In this document: positions 1-8,288 of the stretch, piece after piece | How positions within the stretch are numbered: the first letter of the stretch is position 1 | Layout: each line of letters begins with the position of its first letter | IMG/VR virus record: IMGVR_UViG_2654587570_000010 | Span: 1-8,288 of that record | Source: a virus | Lineage: Duplodnaviria; Heunggongvirae; Uroviricota; Caudoviricetes | Reading direction: 5' to 3' (one strand) | Length of the DNA: 8,288 nucleotides | Program-made: the position numbers and the translations under genes | The notes under the pieces: model-generated | Told to the model about the DNA's origin: nothing | Database searches by the model: none | The model's input: only the letters and a program-made list of their open reading frames with translations

Positions 1-43
1 CAGTAGCTGAACAGGAGGGACAGCTGATAGAAACAGAAGCCAC
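1..43 (-). CDS. insA: IS1 InsA, N-terminal fragment (about 14 codons, continues off-window)
   Basis: On the minus strand, GTG GCT TCT GTT TCT ATC AGC TGT CCC TCC TGT TCA GCT ACT translates to (M)ASVSISCPSCSAT, the remembered InsA N-terminus with its CxxC motif. The GTG start is at 41-43. Confidence 0.8.
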   Translation of the reverse strand, partial: MASVSISCPSCSAT

Positions 44-76
44 TGGAGCACCTCAAAAACACCATCATACACTAAA

Positions 77-98
<22 letters not shown>
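1..98 (-). mobile_element. IS1 insertion sequence, partial (left terminus; the rest lies beyond the window's left edge)
   Basis: The reverse complement of 1-98 reads GGTGATGCTGCCAACTTACTGATTTAGTGTATGATGGTGTTTTTGAGGTGCTCCAGTGGCTTCTG..., which matches the IS1 terminal inverted repeat and leader as I recall them. The outermost IS1 base is at 98. Match is from memory, not from a search. Confidence 0.9.
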
Positions 99-2681
<2,583 letters not shown>

Positions 2682-2870
2682 GCTTACCTTCCCTGAACGA
2701 GCTAACATAAATGCGCCCTTTCTAGCACAGCGAAAAAATGTAAATCCTGATAGCAATATGATTGAAAATTAATAACTTTTCGTTAGGCAGTTTTGGGTGT
2801 GAGTTGCAAGAGGGGAGACTACTGAATAACTCAAGTTTTATAATCGAGGGGAAAATGGTGATGGCGTTCA

Positions 2871-2905
2871 TAGCAAAACGCCCTCAACCATAAAGGTCGA
2901 GGGCG
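2871..2905 (-). terminator. Candidate rho-independent terminator downstream of tRNA-Asn
   Basis: On the minus strand, an 11-bp stem (plus 2879-2889 paired with 2895-2905, one G-U wobble) with a 5-nt loop is followed by UUUU (plus 2875-2878). It lies about 90 nt past the tRNA 3' end. Confidence 0.5.
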
Positions 2906-2993
2906 CTTAAGATGTTAAAAACCCGCTATCCGTTAATAAACAATGTTCAACTAAGGTTAGTGACATTGCGCTAAGAAGCGAATTTTTAGAATT

Positions 2994-3069
2994 TGGCTCC
3001 TCTGACTGGACTCGAACCAGTGACATACGGATTAACAGTCCGCCGTTCTACCGACTGAACTACAGAGGA
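2994..3069 (-). tRNA. asnT: tRNA-Asn (anticodon GUU), 76 nt with encoded CCA
   Basis: The reverse complement is UCCUCUGUAGUUCAGUCGGUAGAACGGCGGACUGUUAAUCCGUAUGUCACUGGUUCGAGUCCAGUCAGAGGAGCCA, with anticodon loop CUGUUAA. The asnT name is by position between yeeJ and mtfA. Confidence 0.95.
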
Positions 3070-3169
3070 ATCGTGTGAACGGGGCGAATATTACTTAGCG
3101 GTACCTTGTCTGTCAACACTAAATTTCATAAGTCATTTCAATTGGTTAATTAATCTGCAAAGTTGTTAA

Positions 3170-3967
3170 TTAATGAACATTCGTCGCCGAAAACGAGTCT
3201 GTATCATTAGTGCGATGCAGTCTCTGCAAAGGATCTTGTTGATAAAATTGGCAGAAACGTTGCCACAATGAAGGGAAACGAGGAGCAAAAAGTTCTGGGG
3301 CGCTAAAGAAATATTCAGAAAGTACGGCAAAACATTCAGCAGGATCACTGGCAGCATAAGCATCAATGCTCGCCGCATTCTCGCCAACTAATTCGATTTC
3401 TTCCTGAATGTTGTTCATTGCAGCATGAAGATCGTGTTCCCAGCCAGCAACCTCACGCAACGGAATAAAGGGAACTCCGCTGGCGCGATCGCCGTTACGG
3501 GTGTCCAGCTTATGAGCGACTTCATGAATAATCAGGTTAAAACCAGAAGCATCAAAAGAATCTTGTATATCCAACCAGTTCAAAACGATAGGCCCTTGCT
3601 GCCAGCTCTGACCTGACTGAACAATACGTTGGTTATGCACCAGACCGATATCGTCTTCCCATTCATCATCGACCACAAATGGCGCAGGATAAATTAAGAC
3701 TTCATGAAAACCATCCAGCCATTCCAGTCCTAACTCCAGAACGGGTAGGCAAAATAGAAGTGCTATCCGGCAGCTTCTTAATGAATCCAGTTCAAAGCCC
3801 TGTAAAGGAACAAGCCGCTTTTGCTGTAAAAAACGTTCGGCAAGAGTGACTAATTTGCTTTGTTCCTGTTCCGTCAGACACGTTAAAAGGGGGATCGATA
3901 GTGCTTCCTGCCAGGGAAGGGCAGTTTGATGTGCTGATTCTTGTACTTTCCAGGGCCACTTAATCAT
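3170..3967 (-). CDS. mtfA: MtfA (Mlc titration factor A), zinc-dependent peptidase, 265 aa
   Basis: The translation [28 protein letters not shown]...HEVAHKLD... contains an HExxH metallopeptidase motif and matches the remembered E. coli MtfA (YeeI) in sequence and length. The start is taken at the ATG at 3965-3967 rather than the upstream GTG used by the ORF track. Confidence 0.92.
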
Positions 3968-4060
3968 CGTTTTGCTCGCAAACTCGTCACTTGAACAAAA
4001 TTGCACGGACAGGGACTGTTAAAATGCCAAATTTCCTGGCATCATGGCAACCATCTGAAC

Positions 4061-4150
4061 GGAGAGATGCCGGAGCGGCTGAACGGACCGGTCTCGAAAA
4101 CCGGAGTGGGGGCAACTCCACCGGGGGTTCAAATCCCCCTCTCTCCGCCA
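4061..4150 (+). tRNA. serU: tRNA-Ser (anticodon CGA), 90 nt, long variable arm, encoded CCA
   Basis: The sequence GGAGAGAUGCCGGAGCGGCUGAACGGACCGGUCUCGAAAACCGG...GGGGGUUCAAAUCCCCCUCUCUCCGCCA has anticodon loop CUCGAAA and a class II variable arm. It is divergent from mtfA, as in the remembered K-12 order. Confidence 0.95.
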
Positions 4151-4195
4151 AAATTCAATCACTTACACATCATTAAGTCAGTGACAAAAATCACA

Positions 4196-4232
4196 CTTGG
4201 AATTACTTGGAATATTTTCTTGGAATATTTTC
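4196..4232. repeat. Three tandem direct repeats CTTGGAAT(T/A) (4196-4205, 4206-4219, 4220-4232), candidate integrase arm-type (P') binding sites in attL
   Basis: Repeats are directly visible: cttggaatta / cttggaatattttc / ttggaatattttc. They overlap the last codons of int (..PENIPRKYSK*) and lie between the tRNA 3' end and int, where P'1-P'3 sit in lambda attL. Function is inferred. Confidence 0.35.
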
Positions 4233-5228
4233 AGGTAACGGGATATTAAGTGTTGGTGAAACTTTAACCTTCCTGTCATAGATTAGCACTTGCCCTTCGG
4301 TTTTGTGACCAGAGAAAAGTTGCTTATCCCGGCTACTTCCTTCATAGTCTGAAATTCCTTTCGCCTTCAGATCATGAAAGGTGAAGTCGGTTAAAATACC
4401 TGAAATTTTTCCAGCACGATTTCTTGCTTCTACCCACATTTCGTTAAAGCCTTTGTACATATATCGGTTGCCGTATTGGTTGCTGATTACATAGGCGGAT
4501 GTTGGTAACTGTTTTGCTTTTTCGATCGCCGCCTGTAATCGTGGACTCCATGCTTTTATCTGTTTTTTCCCTGTTTTCCCTTGCTGGATAAAGATCCCGT
4601 CGTTTCCAATCTGCTCCCATTTCAGCGATAACACATCGGAAATCCTCGCTGCACACAGATAGGCAATTTCCATTGCGATGAAAACAGGAAGAGGTGCAAC
4701 GCTTAATACTGCCTGGTATTCTTTGTCGGTTACATATCGTTCGCGGTTTTTGGCCTTGAATTTACTTACACCTGCACATGGGTTAGCCTTCACGTACCCT
4801 CGCTCATACCCCCAACTGTAAACACGGGACATACTGCTTTTTTCATGGTTGGCTTGCGTTTTACTCTGCTCCCCTCTTTTGTCCATGTATCGACGGATGT
4901 GTTCTGGTTTTATGGAATCTGCCGGCACCTTACCGAATACGGCAAGCAACTTTTTTTGATGTTGCAGATAATCTTTTTGTGTTCTTGGGCTCAACTCACT
5001 GTAACAGGCGCTGGCGAGGAATTTTTCCCACAAGCGACCAAATGTCATTGCACGATCGCGGTTATTTACAGTTTCCTCATACTTTTTCCATAACGCGGCT
5101 AAACCATCTTTGATGGCGGTTAGTGTTACAGATTCTCTGGATGTTGGTTTCCATACATAACTATATTTATTTGGGTATACATTTGGAGGTAATCTTTCGT
5201 GTTCAGGGTTTTTCCTTCGTCTTCCCAT
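4203..5228 (-). CDS. int: Tyrosine site-specific recombinase, lambda-family phage integrase (341 aa)
   Basis: The N-terminus MGRRRKNPEHERLPPNVY resembles the lambda Int arm-binding N-terminal domain (MGRRRSHERRDLPPNLY, from memory). Length is typical, and the gene sits directly next to a tRNA 3' end. The ATG is at 5226-5228. Confidence 0.9.
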   Translation of the reverse strand: MGRRRKNPEHERLPPNVYPNKYSYVWKPTSRESVTLTAIKDGLAALWKKYEETVNNRDRAMTFGRLWEKFLASACYSELSPRTQKDYLQHQKKLLAVFGKVPADSIKPEHIRRYMDKRGEQSKTQANHEKSSMSRVYSWGYERGYVKANPCAGVSKFKAKNRERYVTDKEYQAVLSVAPLPVFIAMEIAYLCAARISDVLSLKWEQIGNDGIFIQQGKTGKKQIKAWSPRLQAAIEKAKQLPTSAYVISNQYGNRYMYKGFNEMWVEARNRAGKISGILTDFTFHDLKAKGISDYEGSSRDKQLFSGHKTEGQVLIYDRKVKVSPTLNIPLPENIPRKYSK

Positions 5229-5437
5229 CAGATCGCACCAAAATTCGGCTCTACCTCGCGTGGTGGTAAAGTTTTATTGCAGGTAAATAGATCCCGGCTG
5301 ACAATCGGTTTGCCACTGCGATTGGTATAGAACGGAAGCCCATTTTCTATTAACCATTTTCGCTGGTGGCTTGCATATTTGCAGCCCGTTAATATTAGCA
5401 ATTCATCTTCGGTTAAAAATAAGCTGCTCATAGCCAT
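5228..5437 (-). CDS. Small excisionase-like / DUF4224-like protein (69 aa), translationally coupled to int
   Basis: Its TGA stop overlaps the int ATG (minus-strand cTGATGg). The motif LTEDELLILTGCKYASHQRKWLIENGLPFYTNRSGKPIV resembles small winged-helix proteins found upstream of phage integrases. Assignment is by pattern and position only. Confidence 0.55.
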   Translation of the reverse strand: MAMSSLFLTEDELLILTGCKYASHQRKWLIENGLPFYTNRSGKPIVSRDLFTCNKTLPPREVEPNFGAI

Positions 5438-5489
5438 ATCTCATAACCGCCGCTAACTATATGCGGTTAGCGGCGATCAGGGTTGAACA

Positions 5490-7970
5490 TTAAAAATCAG
5501 CCTGATCCGGGATCATTTTTTGTATGGTGGCTGTAACGTATTTTGCCTGGTGGAGAGCGTCATCCAGTGCATTATGGCGTACGCCTTCGAATGGAATAGC
5601 TGTCTTGGCATCAAAGTCGATGGTTTTTCCCAGTTCGACGATTGTGCGCACGTCGCGATCGTTGCAGTAATGCCACGGGCAGGTGATCCCCTGCCGTTCA
5701 TATGAACGGCGTAAAATTGTGTTGTCGAAAGTTGCGCCATTGCCCCATACCTGCACGAATTTCTCATCTGAATGTTCGCTGATGAATTCCCGGAACCGTA
5801 AAAGGGCATCCTTCAGTTTTACCTGGTCTACCAAGATTGCAGATCTCGCCTCACTGGACTGCGCCAGCCACCATTCAATGGTGGAACCATCCGGAACAGC
5901 ACCTGTGGTCATTGCGTCAGCTAGGCTGATAACGATATAAAACGTTGGCCCGATTTCCCCTGTCTGCGGATCGAAAAACACAGCACCAATAACCACTATG
6001 GGCGCGTTGGTGTTAGTTCCCATCGTCTCGAGGTCGAGCATCAGGTGGTACCACATTCTGCTGGCGGATGTGGCTTTGTGATGATCGTTCGCCTTAATTA
6101 AGGTATTTGTCGTCTCGCCAGTTTCACCATCGCTATCGTGATAGTGATCATTGCCAGCGTCCTCCTTGTGATGATGTTCAGAGTCTTCCATTTCTTCCGG
6201 ATCTTTTTCCTGAGATTCGACCTGATTTTTTTCATTGAATGTTTCCTGGTATGTTGCGTCGCCCATCACCGCGCCACAATCAGGGCAGTTGCCGCCACCG
6301 CTCTGACCGCAGGTGGTGCAGATCTTTTCCTGTTCTTGTTGCGCTACTGGTTCAGGCTGTTTCGTTTCTGGCTCGTTTTGTAACGCATTTGGGCTGTTTT
6401 GTTCCGCTTTCTGGTCGTTCTGTTCCGTTTCTTGCTGGTTCTGGTTCACAGAATCGCGGGTTTCAATCCCCTTCACCCATTTCGGATCATTCGGGTCGCT
6501 AATCCCTGCAACAAATTCACCACGTGATACTGCAAGCAGTTCATCGGCGTCAGGCTGGCTGATATTGGCTGCCTGCATAATTTTGTTTACTTCGTCAGCG
6601 GTAACTTTTACCGGCCCTGGTTGTGCGGTCGTGTCAGATGCACCAGTATTTTGTTGTGAACCTGAGTATGTACCGTTTTTGCGGGCGAAATATTCTTCTT
6701 TCGTGATTTCAGTAGCCCCGGCAGCCAGTGCCTTATCCAGACCAGAAAGTTTGTTTGCGCGACCGTATTTTTTGCCACCCTTGTCGGTGAAGAGGAAGTA
6801 GAACGGCCCCTCACGCTCTACAGATGGTTCGACTTCCACTTTGCATTCGGTTTTTTCGTTGTCCTGAATTGCCGTTTCCACTGCATCAGTTTCTGGTACT
6901 GGCGACGAGAGAGTATCAGTTGCGCTCTGATTTCTTCCTTCATCTTCAAACACGCCCTTTGTAGTCAGGTATTCAGTAATGTATTTGTTCAGTGCCACAG
7001 GGTCTTTGTGAATGTCGATCGGACGTTCACGGACAAGGCCAAAAATAGTCTGGCGGTCGTAGCGAAGGGCATCAGGCTGTTTGCGCATTGATGCCGAGAT
7101 ACGCTTCCAGTCTTCGCGGTCGTTGTCGATAACTTCATTTTTTGCCCAGCGATGGATGCTGCCGTCAATGTTTCCGGCATCCACATCACCAGGCCAGAGA
7201 GCGTAGGCCAGTTCGTCATCCAGTGTTTTCCATGTCTGCTTGTATTCGCGATGAATGGCAGCAATGACCGGGCTGATTTTTCCTGTTGAATTTTCAGTGT
7301 GCTGTTGATTGGCTCTGGCGCGGGCGAGATCAACAACAGACGTGTATTTTCCGGTTTCCTTGCGTTCACCTTCGCGACGTTTTTTCCAGATGCGCATCTT
7401 TGCCTGAATTTCGGGCCATTTGGCACCAGGCTTACATTTATGCTTAACCCACCCGATGGCATGCAGCTTAAGCTCCGGATACATGGCGTTAACTTCTGGC
7501 ATTTTCATCAACGCTTCAACGATATGTCCGTCGAATGTTGCCATGTCTTCCTGCAACAGTTCCTGCGCGCTAATCACCATATCAACGGTGATGTTTTCAC
7601 ATGTGTCGAACTTAACCATGACAGCGTTCTGTACTTCAGGGGCCAGCTTGTCAAAAGTGACGTTCATAGGATCTGATTCAGTCTCAACCGGGACAAAGGA
7701 AGCAGACTCCTCATCCCAGCGGTTTTCCTGCATAAATTCAGCATCCCAGGAATCGAGGGCAGGGCGGGGTATACCGGGTTTATCCTCGCAAACAAGAAAT
7801 TTATAAGCGCAGTCCTGAGCAGCCGGATAATGTTCCAGGAATTGCCAGTGAAATTTTGCGCGGGCGCGACGTTCATCACCGGCTTCAATGGCTGTGGCTA
7901 CAGGTTTAGCGCCTTCTTGTTTTATTGCCTGTTCGTCCGGAATGGCAGCGCAAATAAAGACTTTACTCAT
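5490..7970 (-). CDS. Prophage exonuclease (826 aa): RecE-like central region with C4 zinc ribbon, fused to a C-terminal DnaQ-like DEDDh 3'-5' exonuclease domain
   Basis: ATG at 7968-7970 with a GAGGT Shine-Dalgarno about 9 nt upstream. Residues about 476-620 (ADELLAVSRGEFVAGISDPNDPKWVKGIETRD...CTTCGQSGGGNCPDCGAVMGDATYQETF...) resemble the central region of Rac RecE as I remember it. Residues about 639-826 carry DEDDh motifs: LDLETMG, WGNGATFD, HNALDDA. Confidence 0.8.
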   Translation of the reverse strand: MSKVFICAAIPDEQAIKQEGAKPVATAIEAGDERRARAKFHWQFLEHYPAAQDCAYKFLVCEDKPGIPRPALDSWDAEFMQENRWDEESASFVPVETESDPMNVTFDKLAPEVQNAVMVKFDTCENITVDMVISAQELLQEDMATFDGHIVEALMKMPEVNAMYPELKLHAIGWVKHKCKPGAKWPEIQAKMRIWKKRREGERKETGKYTSVVDLARARANQQHTENSTGKISPVIAAIHREYKQTWKTLDDELAYALWPGDVDAGNIDGSIHRWAKNEVIDNDREDWKRISASMRKQPDALRYDRQTIFGLVRERPIDIHKDPVALNKYITEYLTTKGVFEDEGRNQSATDTLSSPVPETDAVETAIQDNEKTECKVEVEPSVEREGPFYFLFTDKGGKKYGRANKLSGLDKALAAGATEITKEEYFARKNGTYSGSQQNTGASDTTAQPGPVKVTADEVNKIMQAANISQPDADELLAVSRGEFVAGISDPNDPKWVKGIETRDSVNQNQQETEQNDQKAEQNSPNALQNEPETKQPEPVAQQEQEKICTTCGQSGGGNCPDCGAVMGDATYQETFNEKNQVESQEKDPEEMEDSEHHHKEDAGNDHYHDSDGETGETTNTLIKANDHHKATSASRMWYHLMLDLETMGTNTNAPIVVIGAVFFDPQTGEIGPTFYIVISLADAMTTGAVPDGSTIEWWLAQSSEARSAILVDQVKLKDALLRFREFISEHSDEKFVQVWGNGATFDNTILRRSYERQGITCPWHYCNDRDVRTIVELGKTIDFDAKTAIPFEGVRHNALDDALHQAKYVTATIQKMIPDQADF

Positions 7971-8063
7971 TTTGTTTTAACCTCATGACAGATTTAAGGG
8001 TGAACAAATCCCTGCCATTGCTGGCATATAAGAATGAAATCGGATGTTTATTACGGAACTGTT

Positions 8064-8255
8064 TTAAAGACCTGCCGGGATTTCGTTATTATCCTGGTGA
8101 ATAACTTTATCGACCGGGTAACAGTTACCGGGAATTTTCTGTTCGGTTGCTGCAGTCACACACTCCTGCATTGTCCTGTGAACACTGATTGCAATATCAA
8201 CTGGCTCTCCGGAAACAAGAAAAACTGTCAGAACAAGTGCAAATGCTGTATTCAT
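8064..8255 (-). CDS. Small hypothetical prophage protein with hydrophobic N-terminus (63 aa from MNTAF; the ORF track starts 3 codons earlier at 8264)
   Basis: Open frame with N-terminal hydrophobic stretch MNTAFALVLTVFLVSG, possibly a signal peptide or membrane anchor. AAGGA lies about 8 nt upstream of the second ATG (8253-8255), which favours that start. It is co-oriented upstream of the exonuclease gene. Confidence 0.45.
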   Translation of the reverse strand: MNTAFALVLTVFLVSGEPVDIAISVHRTMQECVTAATEQKIPGNCYPVDKVIHQDNNEIPAGL

Positions 8256-8288
8256 TGCCAGCATCCTTTTTGTATCGGACGTAAACGG

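Follow-up and report, generated by a model that had tools for sequence, protein, structure and literature searches.

A predicted DexA-family DEDDh exonuclease on a RecE-type scaffold in lambdoid prophages

The DNA described here (the window, in what follows) is a stretch of 8,288 nucleotides, positions 1 to 8,288 of the IMG/VR virus record IMGVR_UViG_2654587570_000010. Its positions 5490-7970, on the minus strand, form a single uninterrupted open reading frame (ORF) of 826 codons plus stop, which starts with MSKVF in the ORF list. The encoded protein is not a RecE: it scores below the RecE equivalog cut-off, has neither of the terminal domains of RecE and is without a RecT partner. By sequence it is a DexA-family DEDDh exonuclease carried on a RecE-type scaffold. 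It is a member of a combinatorial family in which two N-terminal modules are joined to two main nuclease heads, and the head predicts the RecT neighbour. On balance, the reading favoured in this work is that of an annealase-independent, DexA-like exonuclease acting on the 3' ends of DNA. The exchange of heads on a common scaffold and the strict rule that links head and RecT are new; already catalogued are PHROG 2082, the Pfam families YdfE_N and YdfE_C, and the PGAP names 'exonuclease' and '3'-5' exoribonuclease domain-containing protein'.

Because 4 complete Escherichia coli genomes and IMG/VR contigs hold copies 100% identical to it, the gene is no artefact of assembly; one of these copies is annotated as 'exonuclease' (WP_063183380.1). 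The match with phrog_2082 spans the whole protein (residues 1-826 against positions 1-823 of 823). The structure was predicted with AlphaFold2 (AF2), both at full length, from an alignment of 87 sequences, and in a second model that covers residues 1-440. Together with the profile searches, these models (with their predicted local distance difference test, pLDDT) give the following layout:

5490..7970, minus strand: complete coding sequence of the RecE-scaffold / DEDDh exonuclease, an intact YdfE-family protein (ORF list, phrog_2082)
7356..7970, minus strand: residues 1-205, folded alpha/beta N-terminal module, YdfE_N (AF2 pLDDT >90)
6936..7253, minus strand: residues 240-345, helical domain, YdfE_C, common to RecE ~278-370 (AF2 pLDDT >90, RecE alignment)
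6666..6818, minus strand: residues 385-435, small beta-beta-alpha-beta-alpha domain, GPFYF...GRANK (AF2 pLDDT 82-95 in the full-length model; conserved in the family consensus)
6051..6665, minus strand: residues 436-640, acidic and mostly disordered linker, the 'RecE-like central segment' (AF2 pLDDT mostly <50)
6477..6539, minus strand: residues 478-498, LLAVSRGEFVAGISDPNDPKW, motif kept in every scaffold relative, at the mosaic junction with RecE_N-type genes
6276..6320, minus strand: residues 551-565, CxxC-x7-CxxC zinc ribbon, common to RecE (weak Pfam DZR match)
5490..6050, minus strand: residues 641-826 plus stop, DEDDh 3'-5' exonuclease head, PF16473, DexA/Rv2179c-like (Pfam, AF2 pLDDT ~97)

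The head matches PF16473 (Rv2179c-like 3'-5' exoribonuclease domain) with an E-value of 5.3e-68 and a score of 228.6 bits, the cut-off being 27, over profile positions 2-175 of 177, with RNase_T as a weak secondary Pfam match, and AF2 gives it a DnaQ RNase H-like fold. The catalytic residues, whose conservation was counted over 45 family members, are placed as follows:

6027..6035, minus strand: Exo I, D646 and E648, aligned with DexA D7 and E9; invariant in the family
5724..5726, minus strand: Exo II, D749, aligned with DexA D119; invariant
5559..5576, minus strand: Exo III, H799 and D804, aligned with DexA H186 and D191; H799 invariant, D804 in at least 90%

All of them are kept across relatives of 40-60% identity. 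The original prediction, made from the letters of the DNA, had proposed a C-terminal DnaQ-like domain of the DEDDh type from the motifs LDLETMG (645-651), WGNGATFD (742-749) and HNALDDA (799-805); the motifs are in these places, and the profile match, the aligned residues and the predicted fold bear the proposal out. A Foldseek search with the head returned 77 matches at E <=0.001, the best 50 of these 77 being all DEDD exonuclease domains; the first was T4 DexA (8KEL; E 2.5e-10, TM-score 0.67-0.73), and behind it came REXO2, RNase T, ERI and Orn. T4 DexA was also the sole PDB match of the head in phmmer (8KEL/8KEN), and a profile of 45 sequences found DexA in the PDB at 8e-23, the next match at 5e-6 and the oligoribonucleases at ~1e-3, with no Rv2179c chain among its matches at E <=0.01. 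Judged by its family, DexA/Rv2179c, the protein would be a DEDDh exonuclease that depends on metal and works in the 3'-5' direction. DexA is a 3'-5' DNA exonuclease involved in the scavenging of host DNA and in intron homing, which is a form of double-strand-break repair (PMC12153337).

The relation with RecE is restricted to the inner part of the protein. In BLASTP, residues 262-625 align with residues 278-591 of the K-12 Rac RecE (E 1e-56), with an identity of 37% across this part, 65% across residues 474-599 and higher values in motif blocks, and similarity with Rac recE at the DNA level is found only in window positions 6115-6546. The centre had been described as nearly identical to the middle of Rac RecE from residue 460 onwards. 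The homology holds and the near-identity was somewhat overstated; besides, the similarity begins earlier, at residue ~241-262. The strings quoted in support (SRGEF at 482-486, ISDPNDPKWVKGI at 490-502, TRDSVNQNQ at 504-512 and NCPDCGAVMGDATYQETF at 561-578) are all in place. The RecE-type central scaffold is present with its YdfE_C-like domain, the GISDPNDPKW motif and the Cys4 ribbon, and a YdfE_C probe matches every RecE-type ORF (26-41% identity); therefore, more than the linker is common to RecE. Pfam finds the DEDDh head where RecE has its C-terminal PD-(D/E)XK nuclease domain (PF12684-like; PDB 3H4R), which is absent from the 826-residue protein, and no Pfam match to the Exonuc_VIII N-terminal domain (PF06630) is found in it; the arrangement of a RecE-like centre and a DEDDh head had been correctly recognised. 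An hhalign comparison of YdfE_N with RecE_N gives a probability of 2.6% (E 0.018). The RecE equivalog model (NCBIfam NF007259) scores 269 bits against a cut-off of 1269, and only its positions 438-602 of 877 match. Records named exodeoxyribonuclease VIII by transfer do exist, as had been suspected, despite this score.

The N-terminal ~450 residues, which had been taken as unlike any recognisable protein, can be assigned. Residues 1-256 are 96% identical to ydfE, a pseudogene of the K-12 prophage Qin, and the recent Pfam families PF27430 (YdfE_N) and PF27432 (YdfE_C) are both found in the precomputed tables of homologues with 85-91% identity. On the other hand, the central segment is, according to AF2, mostly a disordered linker and not a domain; it has a net charge of -25 and holds one conserved motif and the Cys4 ribbon. 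An alignment of diverse relatives has LAAxRGEFVxGISDPNDPKW (residues 478-498) as its sole universally conserved linker element, and the ribbon is limited to the E. coli/RecE subgroup, more distant relatives being without it. The N-terminal part may serve as a targeting scaffold.

A search of 1.84 billion representative proteins gave 11,606 matches of many architectures. Among them, the protein P0123 consists of RecE residues 1-592 (88% identity) joined to the DEDDh head, a literal case of the domain swap that the original prediction had suggested. It is encoded in a kilR-ydaE operon of the Rac type; xis-int-mtfA come next, as in the window, and RecT is absent. The DNA of this locus is 95% identical to window positions 98-6524; since the identity ends at 6524, a mosaic junction lies at residue 483, at the conserved motif. 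The reciprocal type is also found: P0137 joins YdfE_N and YdfE_C to a PD-(D/E)XK head, and a RecT gene follows it. In addition, some proteins (P0136, P0145, P0148 and P0129) combine a YdfE-type N-terminus with a different C-terminal head; one of these heads, the 'exonuclease' phrog_7838, has faint Rad52/22 matches (E 0.03-0.05), and another, the C-terminus of phrog_26058, is without known function. The scaffold thus carries at least 4 alternative heads.

The rule that links head and RecT was obtained from a species-level survey, in which the alignment of the linker motif was scanned against one genome per species. Twenty loci were found, hosted by Escherichia, Shigella, Citrobacter, Enterobacter, Kluyvera and a few contigs from metagenome-assembled genomes (MAGs). 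All 4 of the 4 combinations of N-module (YdfE_N or RecE_N) and head (DEDDh or PD-(D/E)XK) are present among them, so that the protein is no one-off chimera but one of at least 4 regular combinations. RecT lies directly downstream at every PD-(D/E)XK locus (12/12) and at no DEDDh locus (0/6). Within IMG/VR, 77 of the 80 loci with a YdfE-type N-terminus carry DEDDh, and none has PD-(D/E)XK or RecT. Related to this, no annealase gene is found in the complete early-left operons of E. coli 2013C-4465, of phage mEp460 and of the P0123 locus, nor is there one adjacent to the exonuclease gene in the window, where xis is directly downstream and ydfD upstream.

Some loci deserve separate mention. Two Firmicutes MAG contigs (L092, Veillonella parvula; L097, Roseburia) hold E. 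coli-type RecE-scaffold or RecET prophage sequence with 82-100% identity and are probably binning contamination. Truncated scaffold genes without head, of 521 and 513 codons, are present in Kluyvera (L109) and Citrobacter murliniae (L105), respectively; in the former, a RecT fragment ~1.7 kb downstream of the truncated gene suggests a disrupted RecET module.

The gene is under purifying selection. Compared with the allele of mEp460, the ratio of nonsynonymous to synonymous substitution rates (dN/dS) is 0.18 for residues 1-256, 0.29 for 346-474, 0.37 for 475-580, 0.77 for 581-638 and 0.15 for 639-826; over the comparisons made, it ranges from 0.13 to 0.29 in the folded parts, from 0.13 to 0.15 in the head and from 0.56 to 0.77 in residues 581-638. 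The head of the window is a rare allele: of 77 IMG/VR relatives, 2 have an identical head, 1 is 87% identical and the rest are ~70% identical at the protein level, as is the common 823-residue form, from which the window head is separated by a synonymous divergence (dS) of ~1.4. The N-terminal 440 residues are 96-100% identical in the IMG/VR relatives with divergent heads, which marks a second mosaic boundary in the linker, at residues ~580-640. Of 5426 complete E. coli genomes, 2887 hold at least 80% of the gene, and those with any match have it at a median of 2 places. It is carried by the functional phages mEp460, Evi and Tritos, and also by relatives of Stx phages and by model lambdoid phages. 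In K-12, the Qin ydfE (locus L004, 5079-5999) corresponds to the first 256 codons of the exonuclease gene, cut by IS2 (IS2E); therefore, K-12 is without YdfE_C, linker and exonuclease head.

In E. coli 2013C-4465 and phage mEp460 the full operon consists of a repressor followed by DUF1391-ydfC-dicB-ydfD-exo-xis-int, which is the layout of the Qin dicB operon, and the gene order around the 826-codon gene matches the dicB-ydfD-ydfE order of K-12 Qin. The exonuclease gene is thus the last gene of a lambdoid early-left operon, directly before xis-int. A consensus-match scan found no promoter-like site ahead of it on the minus strand, and from both facts the gene is probably under repressor control and silent in the lysogen. 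As a separate candidate, an own promoter or an internal start for a stand-alone head was considered and rejected: no promoter-like site is found on the minus strand, and no Shine-Dalgarno sequence precedes M639 or M644. The neighbouring features of the window are the following:

8064..8264, minus strand: YdfD-like DUF1482 gene, upstream in the same operon (Pfam PF07358, E 6e-25)
5228..5437, minus strand: excisionase-like gene (DUF4224), downstream (Pfam PF13986; annotated at the same position in related prophages)
4203..5228, minus strand: tyrosine integrase gene, end of the prophage (Pfam Phage_integrase)
4061..4150, plus strand: tRNA-Ser(CGA), attachment site of the prophage (ARAGORN, Rfam; identity to another prophage copy begins at 4090, inside the tRNA)

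The prophage is inserted in this tRNA-Ser(CGA) gene and adjoins mtfA (3170-4006) and tRNA-Asn (2994-3069); an Rfam scan of the window gives two tRNAs and nothing else. Strain 2013C-4465 holds a second copy of window positions 4090-8288, 99.95% identical, that begins inside the tRNA, adjoins espJ and the gene of an EspF-repeat protein, and has a frameshifted integrase. At the other end of the window (77-2756, minus strand), an inverse-autotransporter gene (YeeJ/intimin-like, LysM-containing) appears split: the ORFs 2406-2756 (MATKKRSGEE...) and 77-2494 overlap in different frames, the long one stopping at 77, which suggests a frameshift near 2406-2494.

According to the favoured reading, the DEDDh head would most likely take nucleotides off DNA at free 3'-OH ends. 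It would be tied to the folded scaffold (YdfE_N, YdfE_C and the small alpha/beta domain) by the disordered acidic linker of ~200 residues, and scaffold and motif would bring it to its site of action, be this a protein partner or DNA ends. N-modules and nuclease heads would be exchanged by recombination within the conserved linker. As the product of the last gene of the early-left operon, the protein is expected to be made on induction or infection and not in the resting lysogen, and its role may lie in DNA end processing or recombination, or in the clearance of nucleic acids, during phage development and with no annealase partner. Several points weigh against this scheme. The disorder of the linker in AF2 might stem from a shallow alignment, and for the N-terminal module no relative of known function was detected. 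The survey of neighbours used RecT probes only, so that an annealase of quite another type nearby would escape it, although none is seen in the annotated operons. The timing of expression is read from gene order alone, and the promoter scan, being a consensus match, leaves room for an internal promoter. PF16473 is named after the exoribonuclease Rv2179c, and the next-best structural neighbours of the head are RNases or dinucleotidases, so RNA or short oligonucleotides may be the substrate. Finally, a literature search found no functional study of YdfE, of the RecE-like/DEDDh architecture or of a full-length relative, in agreement with what had been supposed at first about this architecture.

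A broader proposal, which we hold as tentative, is that the scaffold of the RecE type (YdfE_C together with the disordered linker and its invariant GISDPNDPKW) is a general delivery platform on which interchangeable nuclease heads are docked. The PD-(D/E)XK head, the DEDDh head and at least two others would then be directed to a single target of the host or the phage, for example DNA ends, the replisome or RecBCD. The DEDDh form would process DNA ends from the 3' side without annealase, either making 5' overhangs for joining of the annealing type or stripping 3' tails to control the RecA and RecBCD pathways of the host. If true, this would account for the long-unknown role of the N-terminal 600 residues of RecE. 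The N-terminal ~600 residues of RecE boost linear-linear recombineering, and a 2023 review describes this N-terminal region as of unknown function (PMC11611040).

An activity on RNA is a somewhat weaker candidate and, in our estimation, rather unlikely. The protein would be a 3'-5' exoribonuclease or oligonucleotidase that trims or degrades the 3' ends of host or phage transcripts, small RNAs or RNA-phage genomes, or short linear oligonucleotides. In PMC8628891 (its reference 66) and in the Pfam description, Rv2179c, the founder of the family, is described as an RNase T-like exoribonuclease, the structural neighbours after DexA (REXO2, Orn, RNase T and ERI) point in the same direction, and some prophages carry ISG20-like exonucleases of the DEDDh type that have auxiliary domains (TONDOs) and trim 3' untranslated regions as a defence against RNA phages (PMC13344964). 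Nevertheless, TONDOs belong to a different DEDDh clade, and only candidates of <500 residues were tested in that study (PMC13344964). The relatives nearest to the head by sequence and structure among those characterised are DNases, i.e. T4 DexA and E. coli EcD, and DexA scores far better than the best oligoribonuclease (8e-23 vs ~1e-3), while Rv2179c is missing from the PDB profile matches at E <=0.01. Furthermore, the scaffold is linked in other cases with DNA recombination, and the nuclease whose place the head takes on it is a DNA exonuclease. For these reasons, the RNA specificity that the original prediction had allowed for is not favoured.

Less probable still, though worth weighing, is an anti-phage defence of the HREX type, in which the head would degrade from their 3' ends the 5-hydroxymethylcytosine (5hmC) DNA of superinfecting T-even phages. 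Accessory genes of prophages that adjoin xis-int are often defence genes. The model for this is EcD, a stand-alone DexA homologue of E. coli that degrades 5hmC DNA and that, carried on a plasmid, protected against T4 (PMC12153337); it shares PF16473 with the head and is 35% identical to it (E 8e-33). Table S3 of PMC12153337 includes the 826-residue orthologue of phage Evi (VUF53858.1) as a DexA homologue and does not remark on its architecture. The strong allelic diversity of the head (~70% identity behind N-termini at least 96% identical) would also suit a defence protein, but a dN/dS of 0.13-0.15 in the head is purifying, not diversifying. The EcD sequence was recovered from IMG/VR by means of its cloning primer (189 residues, with A78, W132 and E145 as in PMC12153337). 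The residues reported to recognise 5hmC, W152/D169 in DexA and W132/E145 in EcD (PMC12153337), align with C769 and K782/T783 of the head, and appear not to be conserved; this placement depends on the alignment because of indels, and W766 is three residues upstream. D90 of DexA, which forms the tetramer and is replaced by A78 in EcD (PMC12153337), is retained in the head as D721. Besides, the PADLOC defence models give no match, and a gene of a repressor-controlled operon that is probably silent in the lysogen would be ill placed for defence. A further candidate, the degradation of cyclic nucleotides against CBASS, was ruled out on principle, as DEDDh enzymes require a free 3'-OH end.

That the gene is a decaying or functionless mosaic, produced by illegitimate recombination between prophages and passively carried, is very improbable: K-12 keeps only the IS2-truncated ydfE, 2 of 74 complete IMG/VR ORFs are truncated and the centre is largely predicted disordered, whereas 72 of the 74 are of full length and intact, the dN/dS of all folded parts stays low, also between head alleles at dS ~1.4, the catalytic residues are kept in distant relatives, and functional phages and more than half of the complete E. 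coli genomes carry the gene.

More than half of the complete E. coli genomes hold the gene, often in several copies. Even so, records routinely give it the wrong name 'exonuclease VIII', and the scant attention paid to it is probably due in part to K-12 having only an IS2-truncated stump. The 2 x 2 grid of modules, with its link between PD-(D/E)XK and RecT, is a genetic handle on the role of the N-terminal ~600 residues of RecE, and equally on what a 3'-5' exonuclease adds to the development of temperate phages without annealase. Annotation should no longer transfer 'RecE / 5'-3' dsDNA (double-stranded DNA) exonuclease' to proteins with a DEDDh head. The design by head swap could also inspire recombineering tools.

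Among known systems, T4 DexA shares with the head the Pfam family, the fold and the five aligned DEDDh residues, and is likewise phage-encoded; it is however a stand-alone protein of 227 residues from a lytic phage, with extra loops and without the RecE-type scaffold, and only ~24-29% identical to the head. EcD, the HREX enzyme, also belongs to the DexA/PF16473 family, conserves the catalytic pentad and occurs in enterobacteria and their prophages, but stands alone with 189 residues and has W132, E145 and A78 where the head has C769, K782 and D721. Closer to the head are Sb30 of Salmonella ST64B and p03 of Serratia OS31, stand-alone orthologues of 189 residues and 52-61% identity, whose genes are directly upstream of xis-int, as is the 826-codon gene, and which have no scaffold. 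The ST64B operon with sb30 has further genes, for a deoxyribonucleoside 5'-monophosphate phosphatase (sb35), a DUF2303 protein and a DUF262 protein, a content that may hint at nucleotide salvage. Rv2179c of Mycobacterium tuberculosis, as founder of PF16473, is in the same Pfam family; it is a cellular, stand-alone protein, an exoribonuclease by the description quoted above, and more distant from the head than DexA.

As for the scaffold, the Qin ydfE of K-12 shares residues 1-256 and the dicB-ydfD-ydfE-int context, and differs in being an IS2-truncated pseudogene. Rac RecE is of the same length class, is encoded at the corresponding site of a lambdoid early-left operon and, within its residues 278-591, has the YdfE_C-like helical domain and the linker, RGEFVxGISDPNDPKW and Cys4 ribbon included. 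Nevertheless, RecE has a PF06630 N-terminus, a PD-(D/E)XK head of 5'-3' polarity and RecT always downstream of it, whereas the 826-residue protein has YdfE_N, a DEDDh head whose polarity, by family, would be 3'-5', and no RecT.

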